Shown here: positions 2,741 to 60,448 of the stretch, piece after piece
How positions within the stretch are numbered: position 1 is the stretch's first letter
How the letters are laid out: the number at the start of each line of letters is the position of its first letter
Sequence record: NC_048748.1
Reading direction: 5' to 3' (one strand)
Length of the DNA stretch: 64,000 nt
DNA from: Escherichia phage vB_EcoS_HdH2
Translations under genes and position numbers: made by a program
The notes under the pieces: generated by a model
Seen by the model: the letters and a program-made list of their open reading frames with translations, nothing else
What the model was told of the DNA's origin: nothing
Databases searched by the model: none

Positions 2741-5530
2741 GTGTTTTCTATCCTCCAAGGTCACGCTGGGTTTTCTCGTGATTTAGCAACAGGTATTTGG
2801 CGAGAAATCAAAGCGGAAGATTATACCTTTGCCAAGCGATTCTCGAAAGAGCATCCAGAAGGTAAACCAGCTTCTATGCCCTTCAAATTTGATGTAATAG
2901 AAGAGCACGACCCTCAAAGCCTTGCCGAAATGTTACCACTTATGAGACGTTTAACGTCTGACCCTCATATCGTTGCGGTACGAGGTCGGTGTCTTGCACC
3001 TAAAAATAACGTGCGACGTAAGAAAGGTAACTTTAATGTATCTAATCCTAGTAATATTATTGCTATGGACGTGGATGGTATCCTAGATACCGGTGGGTAT
3101 GACAAGTTTAACCTTGTTGGTATGGCCCGCCACATTATTAAGATGTTGAATAGTATTAGTGAGGACATGTTCCCTCTTGATGCAGGCTTTATAGCTCATG
3201 CATCGTCTTCGGCTGGGCTAAAACCAGGTATCCGAATGCACTTAATGCTAGAATCTAACGTCAAGGTAACTCAGGGTCAGTTAAAGTTCTTATTTACATC
3301 TATCAACGATAGTAGTAAGCAAAAATTTGGTTTTGATATTGCCGACTTAGCTTATTATTCATCTGTCCAGCTCCACTATTTTGCCGACCCCTTATTTAGT
3401 GATGGTATTGTTGATCCGTTTAAAGCGGAGAGTAAGCCACGTCTGGTGTATGTTAAAGGTTCGAAAGTAAATTTGCCCAATAATCTGGTTGACTATGAAA
3501 CAACTAGAGGGGAGTTTAAGGAAGAGTTTTATTCTTTACTTGATCAAATTAAAGGCAAAAAGATCGCGTCTGATAAAGTAGAAGAAACCATCAGCGAATT
3601 GGAAGAAGCTGAGGATGGGGTGTACCTGCGTATTATCCCCAAACTCTACCATAGAGCATTAGAGGATGGTGTTGATTTTGCATGGCTAGAACGTGAGATT
3701 AAACCCGCTTTATCTGAATATATTGCAACTAAAGATAACAGTCGTAATATTCAAGATTACTTTAATAACGGTCGTAAGCAGGCTCTCAAAGCGTTTGTTA
3801 ATAATTCTAAACGTGAGATTCCATTAAATCTGAAAGGTGTTCCGCTCAAGAAATTAGAAGTGGATTCTCCACCAGAAGTTCCGTACCTGAAGATTAACAT
3901 TGTGCCTCCAAAAGGCCATATAACATTTGTTAAAGCAAGTCTTGGTACTGGTAAGACTACGGCAGTAACTAAATGGCTGGACGCAGGTGTTCTTCCTGGC
4001 AACTTTTTAGCAGTTACAAATACTAGAGCACTGGTATCTTCAAACGCTAAGAAATTTAGCGCAGGACAATATGATAAGTCTGTAGATATGCTCAACTTTA
4101 AACGTGGAGCTATTGATCGTATGTCCACGACTATTCACTCTTTGCATAAGTTCAAAAGTTTTATTGGTCAAATAGATACCATTTTTATTGATGAATGTGA
4201 TGCTGTAATGAATGATCTATTATTCGCACCTGTTGTTAAGCAACGTCGCGAATGTATTCAAGTTCTACGTGACATCCTCATGACAGCTAAAACTGTAATT
4301 CTATCAGATGGTGATATTAGTGCCGAAACTATTGAAGCATATGGTTCTCTAATTGATTTTGATAAACCAGTAGCATTTTATAATCATCACCGTAAGATGC
4401 TGTCAAAAGCTCATGCTTATGAGTTCCCTGATGAATCCAGTATTTGGGTTGCACTTCAGACTTCCCTGGAGATGGGTGAGAAATCTATCCTAGTATCTGA
4501 CTGTGGGCCAGATGAACTGAATGAGAAGGGCATGGCGTTGCGTCGTAATACGGGTGCGTTAGTTAAGGAAATCCACTCAAACTCTACGTCTGATGTAGAT
4601 ATTAGACGTATTCTGGATTACACAACTAATGAACTAATTGATCAACAAATTGATTGCTTATTATGTAGTCCATCCGTAACGAGTGGTGTTGACTTTAACT
4701 ATTTTGATAACGTATTTGTTATTACTAGAACTAGTAATCAAGCGCCAAACATGCGCTTTCAAGCAATCAGGCGCGACCGTGGTGCTCAGAATATCTATTA
4801 TTTTATTGATAAATCCACTAGTGGATTCTCCGCAGGTTCTGAACAGTATAATATTGATGAAGGTTGGCTGGAGTTAGCACAGCAATTATACGCACGTCGC
4901 AGGGAGCTGGAATCTAGGAACTATACTAGTACTTTACGTTATTACTTGCTTGATCAAGGTGCAACTATTGATATTTTCAGCGAAAGCTGGGGAACTATTG
5001 AAGGTGCTGGTAAAGAATATACAGAAGAGCGAATCAAAGCCATTCTGCATTCAACTCCGGATTATTGTGCTCCACGTCATGCGGATGCGTATGAAGCTAA
5101 ACTACTTCTTGTTCGCTATTATCATCTTGAGTCTATTAAAGATGTAACAGTTGAGCATGTTGAACAATATATCAAAGATAAACCGAATGATCGAGCCGCC
5201 TTCTTCCATAAGATGCACGAGATGTTTTGGGAAGATATTAAGAAGTGTTCAAATGTAACCATTAAACCATTCATAGAAGCTCTGAAAGGTAAGAAAAAGG
5301 ACTTCTTCCTTAAAACAGGTCAAAGTGCTAACCCAAAATATGCTAGAATGTATCTTGGTATGATGGGTATTGGTAAGGATATGAACACTGAAAATATCGT
5401 AGACTGGTATAGAACCTATTGTAAAATCGAGTGTATGCCAATCCCTTATAAGTTCATGACTGACGAGGAAAGACATATGCACGATGAAGCAATGGCAGAG
5501 CTAGGTGCTAGAAATGACAGTGAAGAATAA
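2741..5530 (+). CDS. SF2 helicase-like ATPase, replication-origin-binding-protein type
   Basis: 929 aa; Walker A KASLGTGKTTAV and Walker B IFIDECD; GTG start 6 nt after AGGAG. Confidence 0.6.
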   Translation: MFSILQGHAGFSRDLATGIWREIKAEDYTFAKRFSKEHPEGKPASMPFKFDVIEEHDPQSLAEMLPLMRRLTSDPHIVAVRGRCLAPKNNVRRKKGNFNVSNPSNIIAMDVDGILDTGGYDKFNLVGMARHIIKMLNSISEDMFPLDAGFIAHASSSAGLKPGIRMHLMLESNVKVTQGQLKFLFTSINDSSKQKFGFDIADLAYYSSVQLHYFADPLFSDGIVDPFKAESKPRLVYVKGSKVNLPNNLVDYETTRGEFKEEFYSLLDQIKGKKIASDKVEETISELEEAEDGVYLRIIPKLYHRALEDGVDFAWLEREIKPALSEYIATKDNSRNIQDYFNNGRKQALKAFVNNSKREIPLNLKGVPLKKLEVDSPPEVPYLKINIVPPKGHITFVKASLGTGKTTAVTKWLDAGVLPGNFLAVTNTRALVSSNAKKFSAGQYDKSVDMLNFKRGAIDRMSTTIHSLHKFKSFIGQIDTIFIDECDAVMNDLLFAPVVKQRRECIQVLRDILMTAKTVILSDGDISAETIEAYGSLIDFDKPVAFYNHHRKMLSKAHAYEFPDESSIWVALQTSLEMGEKSILVSDCGPDELNEKGMALRRNTGALVKEIHSNSTSDVDIRRILDYTTNELIDQQIDCLLCSPSVTSGVDFNYFDNVFVITRTSNQAPNMRFQAIRRDRGAQNIYYFIDKSTSGFSAGSEQYNIDEGWLELAQQLYARRRELESRNYTSTLRYYLLDQGATIDIFSESWGTIEGAGKEYTEERIKAILHSTPDYCAPRHADAYEAKLLLVRYYHLESIKDVTVEHVEQYIKDKPNDRAAFFHKMHEMFWEDIKKCSNVTIKPFIEALKGKKKDFFLKTGQSANPKYARMYLGMMGIGKDMNTENIVDWYRTYCKIECMPIPYKFMTDEERHMHDEAMAELGARNDSEE

Positions 5531-55755: not shown

Positions 55756-57429
55756 TTACTGTACAAAGAATTTACCGTTCTTAAAGTCGATCAAAGTACG
55801 CTGGCCGTTCGCATAGGTAATAACATGCGTTTGCGTCCAGCTTGACGCGCCAACGTTGTAACCCATATCCAGACTACCAGACACGCCGGCAGTGTATACG
55901 CCGCCGTAAATGCTGGCGGTGTGAGTGTGCCCCGTGTTTAATTTGCCCAATTTCTTAAATTGCTTCGGATTGCCACGGCTCCCGTTAATGCCATTGTGAC
56001 CGTGTACGCCGCATTCAATGCCTGCAATTTTAAATGATTGGTCAGTGGTCAGGAAAATAGCGTTAAATTCACAACCTGCAACCTTGCGCAGCGCATAATC
56101 TAGCACGTTGAAAGTATCGTCTTTTTCTGCAATAGCTCCGTAAATCGCAGCATTAAGGCGGTGATATAGTTCCGCGTTGGCTGGATCGTCTTTAATGTTA
56201 GCATTACGATCATCAAGCCAACGGGATAACGCCAGATCATGGTTAGATTCAACAATGATCGTTTGAGCAAAATCGCGCTCCATTGATTCCAGTACGCGCC
56301 CGGTATCGATCAAATCATCAATAACCTTATCACGTCCGGCGGCGTATTGTTTTGCTAGGAATACACCAGACGCACGATTATGATGATTGCGTGATGTAAA
56401 ATCATGCACGTCATGCACAAACTGATATTTTGGCTTCAGAATATCAACAAGCCCGTAGGTGTCACCATGCCCCCACGACGCAGCGGCGCACTCCTCATCT
56501 AATTTTTCAGCGTGAATATCGCCATATTGTAAACCTAAAACGTGCCCCGTTGTTTCATAGCATCCGGCGGGAGTGGCGCAAATATTCAAATCGTAAAACA
56601 TGCCGCTTTCGTCCATCGTTTCAAGCTGGCGAACAAAAAATTCCCCGTCCTCGTCGAACTCAACGACAAGCGCACCAAAGTTATGTAGCGCCTCGGCCTT
56701 TTGCCCTGCTTTCTGCTGGATGTAGTTTTTAAGCGTTGCCGTGCCCGTTGAATACATGCGGCGCACTACTTCACCTTTTAAAGCTGGCACGCTTTCGGCG
56801 GTGATTTTAGCCGCCCCGATTGCCAGACCTTCCAGATTAAGCGCCGTTGCAGTTTCAGCGAATCCAGAAAGCGGATAATCTGCGGTAGGTAACACGTTAA
56901 TCTCCGCCATGAAAGCAAAACGGCGATTATTTAAAAACACGTTTTTGCTGCAAATATATTTATCAAATGCAGAATCATATTTGATTCCGTCCGCGCCCTC
57001 ACCATTTTGGAATCCGTTTTTATTATAAATATACTTAGAAACAAGCAAATCAGCGCCGATAAACTGGGCATATTGTTCAAGCGAGGCTAAAAAGTTTTTA
57101 TGCGGGAAAGTATTATTCTGAATCGAGGTAATAATAAAGCGTTTGCCTTGTTTTACTTCCCAGCTTTCCACCGTGCTAGAAATAACTCCGGCGGCTTCAG
57201 GGCGGTCATCGTTTTTAATAGCTTTTACAGTTTTTGCCGCTTTTGGTTTCGCTGGTTTATTTGCTTCCAGCCAATCACAAATAGCGGTGGAATGCTTTGG
57301 AGTATCGTAAACCGCTTTCGAAATATCGTCGCATACTTCCAGTTTAGTAGCGCGCAGACGTTTACCATAGAAATTGAAGTCAGCGGCAAGGTTCAGGATA
57401 ACGGTTTGTTTTTCTGCGGAAATAATCAT
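55756..57429 (-). CDS. A1: A1-like pre-early protein, calcineurin-type metallophosphoesterase
   Basis: 557 aa; motifs GLQYGDIHAEK, VESNHD, GVHGHNG, GHTH. Confidence 0.7.
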   Translation of the reverse strand: MIISAEKQTVILNLAADFNFYGKRLRATKLEVCDDISKAVYDTPKHSTAICDWLEANKPAKPKAAKTVKAIKNDDRPEAAGVISSTVESWEVKQGKRFIITSIQNNTFPHKNFLASLEQYAQFIGADLLVSKYIYNKNGFQNGEGADGIKYDSAFDKYICSKNVFLNNRRFAFMAEINVLPTADYPLSGFAETATALNLEGLAIGAAKITAESVPALKGEVVRRMYSTGTATLKNYIQQKAGQKAEALHNFGALVVEFDEDGEFFVRQLETMDESGMFYDLNICATPAGCYETTGHVLGLQYGDIHAEKLDEECAAASWGHGDTYGLVDILKPKYQFVHDVHDFTSRNHHNRASGVFLAKQYAAGRDKVIDDLIDTGRVLESMERDFAQTIIVESNHDLALSRWLDDRNANIKDDPANAELYHRLNAAIYGAIAEKDDTFNVLDYALRKVAGCEFNAIFLTTDQSFKIAGIECGVHGHNGINGSRGNPKQFKKLGKLNTGHTHTASIYGGVYTAGVSGSLDMGYNVGASSWTQTHVITYANGQRTLIDFKNGKFFVQ

Positions 57430-57781: not shown

Positions 57782-58189
57782 TTATTCGCCTGCGGCTTGT
57801 TTTACTTCATCGGCAACGCCTAACAGCTGCGCCACGGCGTCCAACGTTTCTAATTTTGCGCTTTCCAGTGATGCCAGATCGTCAACGTCTTTGATAATGC
57901 CGGAATCAATGGCATGTTTAGCGATAACACGCACATAATGCGCTTTACGAATGGAACTGCCGCCGCCAACTTTACGCGGCTTATCGCTTTTCTGATACGC
58001 TTTCGCGCTGGTCAATTTTGAGCGAACGGACACGGGGGAGGCCGCACCTACTGCTTTCGCAATCTCTTTCAAGCCGTCGCTATTTGCGAAATCTAAACCG
58101 TTTTCATTGATTAGCTGCTGATACATGGAAACAGCCTGCTGGGTGTTTTCTTCATTCCAAGAAAATTTTGCGGTTTTAACGTTAGTCAT
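57782..58189 (-). CDS. hypothetical pre-early protein
   Basis: 135 aa; AGGAG SD. Confidence 0.55.
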   Translation of the reverse strand: MTNVKTAKFSWNEENTQQAVSMYQQLINENGLDFANSDGLKEIAKAVGAASPVSVRSKLTSAKAYQKSDKPRKVGGGSSIRKAHYVRVIAKHAIDSGIIKDVDDLASLESAKLETLDAVAQLLGVADEVKQAAGE

Positions 58190-58290
58190 GATTATAACTC
58201 CTATTGAATTAATTTAAGGGATAAGATTAACATAATGTTAATCGTTATATCCCCCGAACTACTGGGGGATATAAAAGTAACACTATAAAC

Positions 58291-58542
58291 TTATGCTACA
58301 GCTTCCCATTTTTCGTTACGCTGGATAACCTTTACAGCGTCGCCGGATTTAACCCGAACGCTATAAATAGTTTTTCCGTTGTTACTCCGTTCCGTTTCAG
58401 CGTATACCGCATCAATTACATCAAACGGCATAAGCGCCGCGCCTTTGATGCGTTCGGTTTTTCCGGTTGCCTCATCCGTTTTAGTAACGAAAGGAATAAA
58501 AACGGATTGACCAATTTTAGGCGCATTAGTAACGTTTTGCAT
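58291..58542 (-). CDS. hypothetical small protein
   Basis: 83-aa ORF. Confidence 0.45.
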   Translation of the reverse strand: MQNVTNAPKIGQSVFIPFVTKTDEATGKTERIKGAALMPFDVIDAVYAETERSNNGKTIYSVRVKSGDAVKVIQRNEKWEAVA

Positions 58543-58774
58543 AGTATAAACTCCAGTTTATTTAGTGGATTGTTCCGCATTACCTGCTGTAAAAGTAGTG
58601 GCAGGTAATAAGTAACAATCCGCTCGCCATTATAATCAATTTAAGGAACTCCACTCAGGCCGCTATATCCCAGTTAGGGGGCGGGGCACATTATGGCAAG
58701 TACCGGCCGTCAAATTTTATCAAGTTATCGCTCTCATCGAACTGGGTACATCTTAAAGCCTATCGGCTAGGGTG

Positions 58775-58978
58775 TCAAACAATTTTTTGCAGTTTTTTAT
58801 GATTCTCTTTCAAGTCAATCATAATATTGCGCCAGATCATTTCCAACCCTTGCTGGCGGCCTTTCTTGTACTGCGTGAATCTATATTTTACGGATTGCTG
58901 AGCTATTGTCAACAATTTTTTAGTAGTACCATCCAATTTTTTGGCTGGTTTACCAGTTATTAAAAGCGTTTGTTTCAT
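58775..58978 (-). CDS. hypothetical small basic protein, enclosed by 24-bp inverted repeats
   Basis: 67 aa, Lys-rich; AAGGA SD. Confidence 0.4.
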   Translation of the reverse strand: MKQTLLITGKPAKKLDGTTKKLLTIAQQSVKYRFTQYKKGRQQGLEMIWRNIMIDLKENHKKLQKIV

Positions 58979-59473
58979 ATCTGCGATTCCTTATATAATT
59001 GATAAGTTTACCGCCGATAGACTTTAAGATGTACCCAATTTTTAAAGAGCGCGGCGGTAAACTTTCCCGCCGTGTAGTTCGTCATTGCCGCCCTACGAGA
59101 TAAATAATAGGGGATACCCAAAAATGGCGCAACCTTATTTTTGTAAAGAAATGTAAAGAAGGCAACACGCCCGGCGCTCACATAAGTTTAAAGGAAACGG
59201 GCGCGCGGATACCACAAAACACAGCAGATAGGCAAGTAATTTTTTCATTTATATTTGCCTTGCCCTACTTGACAAAACTTAAAAAGCTCGTGGTAGCGAT
59301 AAACGAGGGTAGGCAATGCAATGGCATACCTGAAAATTTTACCGCTTTCTAGGGCGTTTTAGGCGGCCTAAAATTGATTTAACAAATATTTAACAACTGC
59401 AAAATTGAAAAATAGTTGGAAAAGGTATTGACTTTTAAAAATCAAGACTAAATGAGTTATTTTATAAAATTAA

Positions 59474-59821
59474 TTAATTGACTTTCTTTTTATATTGTGA
59501 AGGCCGGTTTTTATTGTTTTCGGCCTGCGTTACTTGTCTAAGGTTATCCCCTTTATTATTTAGCTTGTTACGATCAATATGATCAATCATTAGATTACTA
59601 TCTATTTCACCATGTAATAGTAACCATACGACACGATGTACTAAATAACATTCTTTATTAAGTCGAACGATATAATAACCTTGTGAATAGTAAGTACCTG
59701 CAACTGTATCTTTCCTAACTCTTCCCTTATTGACTTTCCAGCGTAGTGACGTTTTCGATGTTTCATCATAATAAAAGTAATGATTAAACAAGTCATAATC
59801 CATTTCTTTATATTTACCCAT
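59474..59821 (-). CDS. free-standing HNH homing endonuclease
   Basis: YLVHRVVWLLLHG...DHIDRNKLNNKGDNLRQVTQAEN; N-terminus parallels 55176..55685. Confidence 0.75.
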   Translation of the reverse strand: MGKYKEMDYDLFNHYFYYDETSKTSLRWKVNKGRVRKDTVAGTYYSQGYYIVRLNKECYLVHRVVWLLLHGEIDSNLMIDHIDRNKLNNKGDNLRQVTQAENNKNRPSQYKKKVN

Positions 59822-59959: not shown

Positions 59960-60085
59960 TTGAGTTATAATATAAATATAAATTAATGAGAAATAATCAC
60001 TATAAAAATAATCACTACGATAATAATAACAACAAGAAACTATCGGCCTAAGTGAGAACCACTATCATTTAAGTTATTCACAAAG

Positions 60086-60181
60086 TTATCCACAGCACAA
60101 AATGATTTGACACGATAGGCGGCGATATACGGGCTTATCCACAGACTTATCCACAGGTTATCCTACTGTATAAATATACAG
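60086..60181 (+). promoter_or_regulatory. left inverted-repeat module: three DnaA boxes plus a LexA-like SOS box
   Basis: TTATCCACA at 60086, 60135, 60147; CTGTATAAATATACAG at 60166..60181. Confidence 0.7.
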
Positions 60182-60448
60182 GGTAGAAAGGTAGTGTTAA
60201 CGACTGCAATCAATTTTATGCCGCCTAAAACGCTTTCTAACGAGCTAAATGCGGTGGGGTAATATTAAAGTAAAGCCGCAACGCGTCGCCCTGGTGGCTT
60301 CGCCGTGTTTTGCTCTTTACTATGCCGCTGCGCGGTTAGCATAAAACTAGGTGTTAGGCAAGGAAAATAAAAAGGTAAAATAATATTTGCCCCTAGAAAG
60401 AAAATACCTTTATCATTCACTCACCGATTAACGAGGGAGGCCGAACAA

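Follow-up and report, generated by a model that had tools for sequence, protein, structure and literature searches.

A boxA-linked inverted repeat around hdi in T5-like phages: a candidate leader-trailer RNA helix

Introduction

In bacterial rrn operons, the leader elements follow the order boxB-boxA-boxC, and the helix formed between leader and trailer contains an RNase III site. An rrn helix of >17 bp is essential, and tethering through boxA and NusB has been proposed to aid its formation (PMC10250234). The boxA consensus of gamma-proteobacteria is GYTCTTTAANA, and BoxA is also able to regulate protein-coding genes; at suhB, Nus factors repress the downstream gene via BoxA (PMC5725501).

Here, we describe an inverted repeat in the final 9 kb of a 64-kb stretch of Escherichia phage vB_EcoS_HdH2 (NC_048748.1; hereafter the window), which represents the first-step-transfer (pre-early) region of a T5-like phage. 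Pre-early expression of T5 has been studied for 50 years, and the repeats of the first-step-transfer DNA have usually been treated only in terms of DNA injection. In T5, inverted repeats IRA and IRA' are listed in 'Repeat Region 1' of this DNA (Davison, bioRxiv 10.1101/866236). The literature names the pair, notes its conservation, and treats the region as untranslated repeats with no assigned role; that account draws no tie of IRA/IRA' to boxA, a promoter core, or an RNA helix (10.1101/866236). The gene between the repeats, T5.008 or hdi, encodes an experimentally shown FtsZ inhibitor, and its deletion leaves the phage viable at a cost in competition (PMC10714956). Both the repeat and the ORF are therefore already known, the repeat as an element to which the literature assigns no function.

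Results

Identity and geometry of the repeat

Over 1.28 kb, the region and T5 share 92% identity. In the T5 record AY587007, IRA is annotated at 4682-4706 and IRA' at 4950-4974. The left arm of the window repeat equals the T5 left arm exactly, the right arm carries the same single mismatch as in T5, and T5.007, A2, A1, and IRB are common neighbours in the two genomes. By sequence and by homologous position between T5.007 and IRB, flanking T5.008, the repeat is T5 IRA/IRA'. The features of the locus are collected in Table 1.

Table 1. Features of the hdi locus in the window, by position
Feature	Coordinates	Strand	Basis or remark
A1	55756-57429		neighbour of the repeat locus
A2	57782-58189		neighbour of the repeat locus
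T5.007 homologue	58291-58542		neighbour of the repeat locus
GAGAGCG, predicted outer-helix strand	58729..58735	-	MFE fold and duplex prediction
Downstream arm (T5 'inverted repeat A'), candidate trailer strand	58744..58767	-	repeat search, promoter scan, haplotype analysis
P-D/E20-like strong promoter, TTGACA-17-TAAGAT	58750..58778	-	promoter scan; T5 and S114 annotations
hdi (T5.008), 67 aa, helix cargo	58775..58978	-	phrog_4718 match, AY543070
P-H22-like promoter inside hdi, TTGACA-16-TAAAAT	58885..58912	-	promoter scan, T5 annotation
Upstream arm (T5 'inverted repeat A''), candidate leader strand	59013..59036	-	repeat search, fold, haplotype analysis
boxA-like element GCTCTTTAAAAA, candidate NusB/NusE binding site	59039..59050	-	consensus match, conservation
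GC hairpin CGGCGG-gaaagttta-CCGCCG, directly 5' of boxA	59052..59072	-	MFE fold
Predicted 'P_hdi' promoter, unannotated in T5	59104..59132	-	hexamer conservation in relatives

The left arm reads GGGTACATCTTAAAGCCTATCGGC, and the right arm is its reverse complement with one mismatch, in agreement with an earlier sequence-only reading of this DNA that had reported 24-bp inverted repeats matching at 23 of 24 positions. That reading placed the right arm correctly and the left arm one base off, at 58743-58766; base 58743, a T, lies outside the arm. A repeat search stretches the pair imperfectly to 39 nt at 82% identity (58729-58767 with 59013-59051). With up to 3 mismatches allowed, the arm occurs only twice in the 64-kb window, and two arm matches were found in 0 of 100 dinucleotide-preserving shuffles. 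The arms enclose ~245 bp, and their spacing in relatives is 217-430 bp. A DNA cruciform was set aside on these distances (217-430 bp), as cruciform extrusion requires short spacers.

On the minus strand, which carries hdi, the upstream arm starts 2 nt past boxA and ends 34 nt ahead of the hdi ATG. The downstream arm reads GCCGATAGGCTT-TAAGAT-GTACCC; it takes in 12 nt from the 3' end of the P-D/E20 spacer, the -10 hexamer, and 6 further nt as far as the predicted start. Beyond an internal loop, the predicted fold pairs GAGAGCG with the 5' half of boxA (CGCTCTT, 59051 to 59045) in an outer 7-bp helix, which in oselot-type phages lengthens into a continuous helix of 42 bp.

The hdi gene and the variable cargo

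The 67-aa ORF is, on the evidence of its homology and of purifying selection seen in the codon positions that vary, a real gene of the T5.008/hdi family. Its product matches phrog_4718 over the full length (E = 6e-39), it corresponds to T5.008 in AY543070, and the window and T5 Hdi proteins differ at 1 residue. Across 21 distinct Tequintavirus loci the ORF is constant at 67 aa, and its variable sites are in excess at third codon positions (11/8/22 by codon position in the first half, 9/5/13 in the second). With 13 Lys and 3 Arg, and with AAGGA 10 nt ahead of the ATG, it is the Lys-rich ORF with its own ribosome-binding site that had been described from the sequence.

The content between the arms varies among relatives. 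Epseptimavirus phages carry diverged hdi homologues of 72-73 aa, some relatives have an additional 52-aa ORF between the upstream arm and hdi, and DT57C-type phages have this additional ORF fused to the tail of hdi and have lost P-H22. Both arms are kept in all these variants, DT57C type included, at a spacing of 217-410 bp, and the S124-type relatives likewise retain the arms and lack P-H22. A T5.009-like leader peptide spanning the hairpin, boxA, and the leader arm was considered: its frame is unconserved and the window differs from T5 there by a 1-nt indel, so a conserved protein is unlikely, though the act of translation alone may have a role.

Promoters at the locus

Upstream of hdi we predict a promoter, P_hdi, with a -35 of TTGCGC (59132 to 59127), a 17-nt spacer, and a -10 of TATTAT (59109 to 59104), just downstream of the A/T-rich TTTCTTTACAAAAATAAGG. 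Its -35 matches at only 3/6 positions, and it scores under the threshold of a simple promoter scan. The hexamers are kept in 46 distinct relatives, in which the spacer varies in sequence and is fixed in length, and the same layout is present in Sugarlandvirus and My1, giving four genera in all. The GC hairpin follows the predicted promoter at a distance of ~45 nt.

In T5, both P-D/E20 and P-H22 are marked at this locus in AY543070. P-H22 has been placed wholly, and P-D/E20 partly, within hdi (preprint 10.64898/2026.04.02.716235). In the window, the -35 of P-D/E20 overlaps the hdi stop codon; one Epseptimavirus hdi homologue lacks the P-H22 hexamers. On the plus strand, the promoter scan disclosed no promoter-like site left of the arms, which makes antisense transcription through them unlikely.

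A boxA-like element preceded by a hairpin

On the minus strand, GCTCTTTAAAA (59050 to 59040) matches the boxA consensus GYTCTTTAANA perfectly. It is the 1 consensus match in the 64-kb window against 0.75 expected, which alone is not significant, and the case for boxA therefore rests on its position and conservation. The element is invariant in 46 distinct relatives, and over 102 loci the consensus gave 117 sense matches versus 1 antisense match. Tequintavirus is without the second boxA that other genera carry past the downstream promoter; no further leader-trailer helix follows the last boxA in My1, Sugarlandvirus, or Epseptimavirus. Two Vibrio Demerecviridae loci (L101, L102) have neither a boxA nor a comparable repeat.

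The GC hairpin occupies the position of boxB in rrn leaders. It is replaced by other hairpins in three loci (L090, L091, L095), and its loop is inverted in two (L026/L027). An intrinsic terminator composed of the hairpin and CGCTCTTT was rejected, as it was unflagged by the scan and its U-tract is interrupted.

Complementarity is kept across relatives

Arms from ~94 loci in IMG/VR, metagenomes, and GenBank were compared by local alignment; a second IMG/VR scan with the T5.007 alignment added 1 locus. All one-sided arm changes among the ~94 loci are transitions. Two-sided changes include a T:A to A:T replacement in both arms of all Epseptimavirus loci, compensated G:C to A:T changes at two further pairs, and, in L023/L057, an extra A in the upstream arm with a matching extra T in the downstream arm. 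Collapsed to 16 haplotypes, 98.3% of the cells are paired and 4 pairs are changed on both sides; neither the observed pairing nor the covariation was reached in any of 500 shuffles, and sliding the partner by one column reduced pairing to 40-47%.

More distant relatives carry arms of other sequence in the same arrangement. In one metagenomic locus (L087), in which T5.007 is 68% identical, the arms AATCTGGTGTCTATTATGCGCCGCT and AGCGGCGCATAATAGACACCAGATT are unlike those of T5 and complementary at 25/25 positions, the downstream arm covering the -10 (CATAAT) and the start. Sugarlandvirus arms, again different in sequence and at the same positions, pair over ~29 bp, including a single G·U and a single bulge. 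Pectobacterium phage My1 (Myunavirus) has two tandem modules, likewise with different arm sequences. In each, boxA is followed by the leader arm, by small ORFs, and by a trailer arm that lies within the next promoter; an hdi homologue is enclosed by the second module. For 14 lineage representatives, duplexes between the 60 nt past boxA and the region of the downstream promoter had dG values of -42 to -70 kcal/mol, compared with ~-16 kcal/mol for shuffles, of which 0/300 were as good.

The upstream arm is conserved as strongly as the promoter arm, and the neighbouring spacers are hypervariable. Taken together, covariation supports a predicted long-range helix of >17 bp that starts just past boxA and encloses the cargo. 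The arms covary among relatives and are not invariant, invariance without covariation being the pattern that the sequence-only reading had named as contrary to its proposals.

Comparison with rrn leaders and other known systems

The E. coli rrnH leader presents, in order, P2, a hairpin GCGAC...GTCGC, aaCT-GCTCTTTAACAA-TTT, and then ATCAGACAATCTGTGTGGGCACT, which pairs with the trailer AGTGCTCACACAGATTGTCTGAT located 3' of 16S. In the window, the predicted promoter is followed by CGGCGG...CCGCCG, C-GCTCTTTAAAAA-TT, and then GGGTACATCTTAAAGTCTATCGGC, for which duplex prediction gives pairing with the trailer past hdi. Common to the two are, in order, a promoter, which in the window is a predicted one, a hairpin, boxA, 2-3 nt, and the 5' strand of a 23-31-bp helix. 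The resemblance extends to the outer 7-bp helix with the 5' half of boxA (CUGCUCU/AGAGCAG in rrnH, GCGCUCU/AGAGCG in the window), the internal loop between the helices, and the long helix itself, which measures 31 bp in rrnH and 28 bp in the window, with duplex dG values of -59.4 and -62.1 kcal/mol, respectively. One G·U in the helix core is shared by E. coli rrn and the window. The elements, their order, spacing, and conservation, as well as the kept complementarity, are direct observations.

The two systems differ in several respects. The cargo is rRNA in rrn, whereas here a gene for a 67-aa protein, with an internal promoter and a ribosome-binding site of its own, takes that place, and the loop is ~1.6 kb in rrn compared with 245-430 nt in the phages. 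A GU-rich boxC is present in rrn, whereas the phage leader strand GGGUACAUCUUAAAGUCUAUCGGC has no UGUGUGGG-like element. Unlike in rrn, the trailer strand of the phage locus is the core of the next promoter. Because its cargo is hdi or other small ORFs, the locus is rrn-leader-like and not an rrn leader.

The suhB gene offers a second parallel, a boxA in the 5' UTR of a protein gene; here the element lies ~47 nt ahead of the Shine-Dalgarno sequence, and suhB has no leader-trailer helix. Lambdoid nut sites are similar in that a phage boxA lies near a hairpin soon after an early promoter, a predicted one here. However, the hairpin follows boxA in nut and precedes it here, in the rrn order; a long-range helix follows boxA, unlike in nut; and the phage boxA here has the rrn form (GCTCTTTAA) instead of that of lambda, CGCTCTTA. 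We know of no N-like protein for a T5-like boxA locus, and none of the neighbouring ORFs was identified as N-like. A lambda-type nut site was rejected on this absence and on the hairpin preceding boxA. In T7 early mRNA, host RNase III substrates between early genes split a polycistronic message, as the putative substrate here would; the T7 sites are local intergenic hairpins, in contrast to a long-range duplex around a whole cassette and coupled to boxA.

RNA helix or DNA-level repeat

The sense RNA from 59110 to 58700 is predicted to form the long-range helix in both the MFE and the centroid fold (z = -6.96), the 24-bp core becoming 28 bp in the fold. Within the core, 8 pairs vary only to sense-RNA G·U (23 cells), versus 3 cells of the A·C type, all of them in one metagenomic contig or the DT57C type. 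Counted as independent sites in the close set, the bias is ~8 versus 3 and not significant, and My1 adds A·C mismatches; we regard it as suggestive of sense RNA. Of the 14 representatives, 10 have a sense duplex of greater stability than the antisense one, and the position of one arm beside boxA, an RNA signal, likewise counts in favour of sense RNA. These observations lend comparative support to a long-range RNA stem, one of the possibilities offered by the sequence-only reading, through compensated changes, divergent complementary arms, the G·U bias, and the adjacent boxA. Rfam returned no family for 58200-59400, the only matches being at chance level (E >= 3).

Watson-Crick covariation and the compensated insertion would be equally expected from gene conversion or from paired protein-binding sites, and a DNA-level role is a serious rival. 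In its strongest form, the arms are paired DNA sites for a phage or host protein, such as an A1/A2 complex or an A1-dependent shut-off factor, acting by looping or promoter occlusion. One site would overlap the P-D/E20 core and the other would lie 220-430 bp upstream. One arm lies exactly over the spacer, -10, and start of a strong promoter in every lineage, and parallel change would likewise be expected of two sites that co-evolve with a single protein. According to earlier reports, A2 binds dsDNA and A1 dampens the pre-early promoters (10.1101/866236; 10.64898/2026.04.02.716235). The region is also rich in conserved repeats, not all of which are possible RNA helices: the neighbouring IRB/IRB' and IRC/IRD cannot share one transcript, so DNA-level repeats do occur here. 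Against DNA sites, each arm is asymmetric and the pair is always inverted, and the portion of the promoter covered differs between lineages, with the trailer arm extending from -25..-10 in My1 module 2 to -24..+14 in My1 module 1. Uncompensated bulges are tolerated in the arms; the one-sided bulge of Sugarlandvirus and the compensated insertion of L023 are easier to accommodate in a helix than in a protein site. One-sided changes, all transitions and mostly to G·U in the sense RNA, point in the same direction, and DNA sites leave the adjacent boxA and the rrn-like layout unexplained. On balance, we consider paired DNA sites unlikely.

A relic is still less probable in our judgement. Here, an inverted duplication of the P-D/E20 core would be maintained by gene conversion and be functionless or at most a weak divergent promoter. 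The upstream arm, read on the opposite strand, does resemble the promoter from mid-spacer to ~+20 (39 nt, 82%), and gene conversion would give the same substitutions and insertion in both arms. However, the opposite strand has no -35 at the upstream arm, and a divergent promoter there was rejected: the window has TTGATA at a 20-nt spacing only, there is no such hexamer in T5 or L087, and the adjoining sequence is hypervariable. Repeats of 24 nt are poor conversion substrates, pairing persists in four genera with wholly different sequences and cargo, and the upstream arm, next to hypervariable spacers, matches the promoter arm in conservation.

A MITE-like miniature mobile element or an invertible segment carrying hdi and P-H22, the other proposal of the sequence-only reading, would fit the 24-nt terminal inverted repeats around ~245 bp and the differing cargo, and is nevertheless highly improbable, given that only two arm copies exist in 64 kb, no target-site duplication is seen (flanks AACT and AATT), ~100 related loci show a single orientation with neither inversion nor loss of the arms, the arms persist through deletion or replacement of the cargo (DT57C type), one arm forms an essential part of a promoter, and no transposase or invertase lies nearby.

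Discussion

Our preferred reading, which we hold tentatively, is that IRA/IRA' may function at the RNA level as a Nus-assisted leader-trailer helix that encloses the hdi cassette and is probably a substrate of RNase III. We are more confident that the arms are maintained by some function that depends on base pairing. Several considerations count against the helix: the outer helix, which takes in the whole of boxA in oselot-type phages, would make boxA inaccessible after synthesis of the trailer, a second boxA past the downstream promoter is missing from Tequintavirus, and the need for antitermination is not obvious for a gene of only 204 nt.

For the leader-trailer helix we infer that the upstream promoter is active, that Nus factors bind, that the helix forms in vivo, and that RNase III cleaves it. 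Pre-early transcripts would start at the predicted conserved promoter upstream of hdi and carry the hairpin, boxA, and the leader strand. Host NusB/NusE and other Nus factors could load at boxA, as its consensus match and conservation suggest, and would tether the leader strand in the vicinity of RNA polymerase until synthesis of the trailer. After transcription of hdi, the trailer would pair with the leader, the step to which the covariation speaks. RNase III cuts duplexes of about two helical turns or more, a general property under which the 24-42-bp duplex would be a likely substrate. The cut would part the mRNA of the hdi cassette from the downstream T5.007-A2-A1 message and leave a downstream RNA whose 5' end lies close to that of the P-D/E20 transcript. 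The location of the trailer inside a promoter may have a simple reason in the available space, this being the sole stretch past the stop codon of the cassette and ahead of the next transcription start. As an alternative at the RNA level, by analogy with suhB, the Nus factors may serve to repress a toxic hdi.

In the searchable literature, we found no paper that combines T5 with boxA or NusB. A link between the repeat and boxA is absent from the same literature, which leaves much older subscription work outside its reach. This is also the case for an rrn-like layout at the T5 repeat and for a modular design in four genera in which the trailer is the next promoter, with older subscription work again mostly outside. 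Should the RNA reading be wrong, the finding would amount to no more than a repeat already annotated, seen again around a gene already known.

Extended to the family, and with somewhat greater reserve than for the helix itself, our proposal is that T5-like phages (Markadamsvirinae, Sugarlandvirus, Myunavirus) could copy the host rrn leader for their takeover cassettes, with a helix chaperoned by Nus/SuhB and excision by RNase III. If true, an rrn-type module for antitermination and processing would for the first time be seen around protein-coding phage genes, and long-range RNA folding assisted by BoxA and Nus factors would extend beyond rRNA to the mRNAs of phages. It would also give one of the first-step-transfer repeats a concrete, testable role. 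The arrangement may account for the difficulty in cloning and engineering fragments of the locus, and it would offer a natural design for a 'cassette insulator', with a promoter core that doubles as an RNA processing arm. For the phage, Hdi expression would depend on host Nus factors and RNase III, as perhaps would the essential A1/A2 operon in genera with a second boxA. Nus/SuhB and RNase III would thus constitute a host dependency of T5 pre-early expression undescribed in the searchable literature.

Repeats and boundaries upstream of hdi

Beyond the FtsZ-inhibitor gene hdi, the HNH gene and the DnaA-box region lie between the arms of the repeat corresponding to T5 IRB/IRB', together with a promoter-like site at 60200->60173. 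The outer arm is located upstream of this promoter-like site, so the two arms cannot pair as a single RNA helix within the leftward transcript. The paired DnaA-box-like sequences are counterparts of the IRC/IRD DnaA boxes, which Davison (bioRxiv 10.1101/866236) treated in connection with the injection stop. According to the same work, the HNH insert is absent from most T5-like phages. The hegG CDS in the T5 record AY543070 is 519 bp, compared with an ORF of only 115 aa here, which may be truncated or may differ in its start. The GC-rich hairpin and T-rich tract recur at homologous positions in relatives; together they may act as an intrinsic terminator, keeping the hdi unit insulated from the HNH transcript.

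Features of the hdi region and related loci
Feature	Position	Strand	Description
Local hairpin	58564-58624	minus	24-nt arms; T5.007 5' UTR, immediately before the ribosome-binding site
Alternative pairing partner of the hairpin 5' of boxA	3' of the leader arm		CGGCGGTAAACTT; 13-bp pairing
GC-rich hairpin, then T-rich tract	about 59160-59172	minus	TCTTTACATTTCTTTAC; a short way upstream of the predicted hdi promoter
HNH homing-endonuclease ORF	59474-59821	minus	115 aa
IRB/IRB'	59338-59379 and 60208-60249		Inverted repeat, 42 nt, 81%
Paired DnaA-box-like sequences	60074-60156		TTATTCACA, TTATCCACA x3; 22-nt direct repeat, 61 bp apart
Tandem boxA/leader-trailer modules	503-1300 of L100 (Pectobacterium phage My1)		Two modules

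Hairpins and boxA alleles in related phages

Compensatory changes are clear across relatives in the 5' UTR hairpin of T5.007, the gene downstream of the trailer arm; stem variants include ACCTGC...GCAGGT, ATCTGC...GCAGAT, ACCTGA...TCAGGT and AGCGTT...GGCGCT. The hairpin is probably a structured RNA element, acting as a stabiliser or a processing site.

In the related loci L026/L027 (the same as L060/L061), the CGGCGGGAAGTTTACCGCCG hairpin 5' of boxA is swapped for its exact reverse complement, CGGCGGTAAACTTCCCGCCG. The swap is a small inversion of the palindromic hairpin, one that retains the stem and removes the alternative pairing with the segment 3' of the leader arm.

The second of the tandem modules in My1 carries My1_013, the hdi homologue, and a third boxA lies ~90 nt downstream of the T5.007 promoter. 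Directly 3' of the trailer arm, Epseptimavirus has two alleles (L067/L070/L092/L097 versus L088-L091). In the first, the 5' UTR belonging to the T5.007 promoter carries an additional boxA in direct orientation. In the second, boxA is present as its inverted complement, which lengthens the helix to 42 bp without a break (oselot, L090). The allele of Tequintavirus is a degenerate version of this inverted-complement form, so no boxA follows promoter P-D/E20 there.
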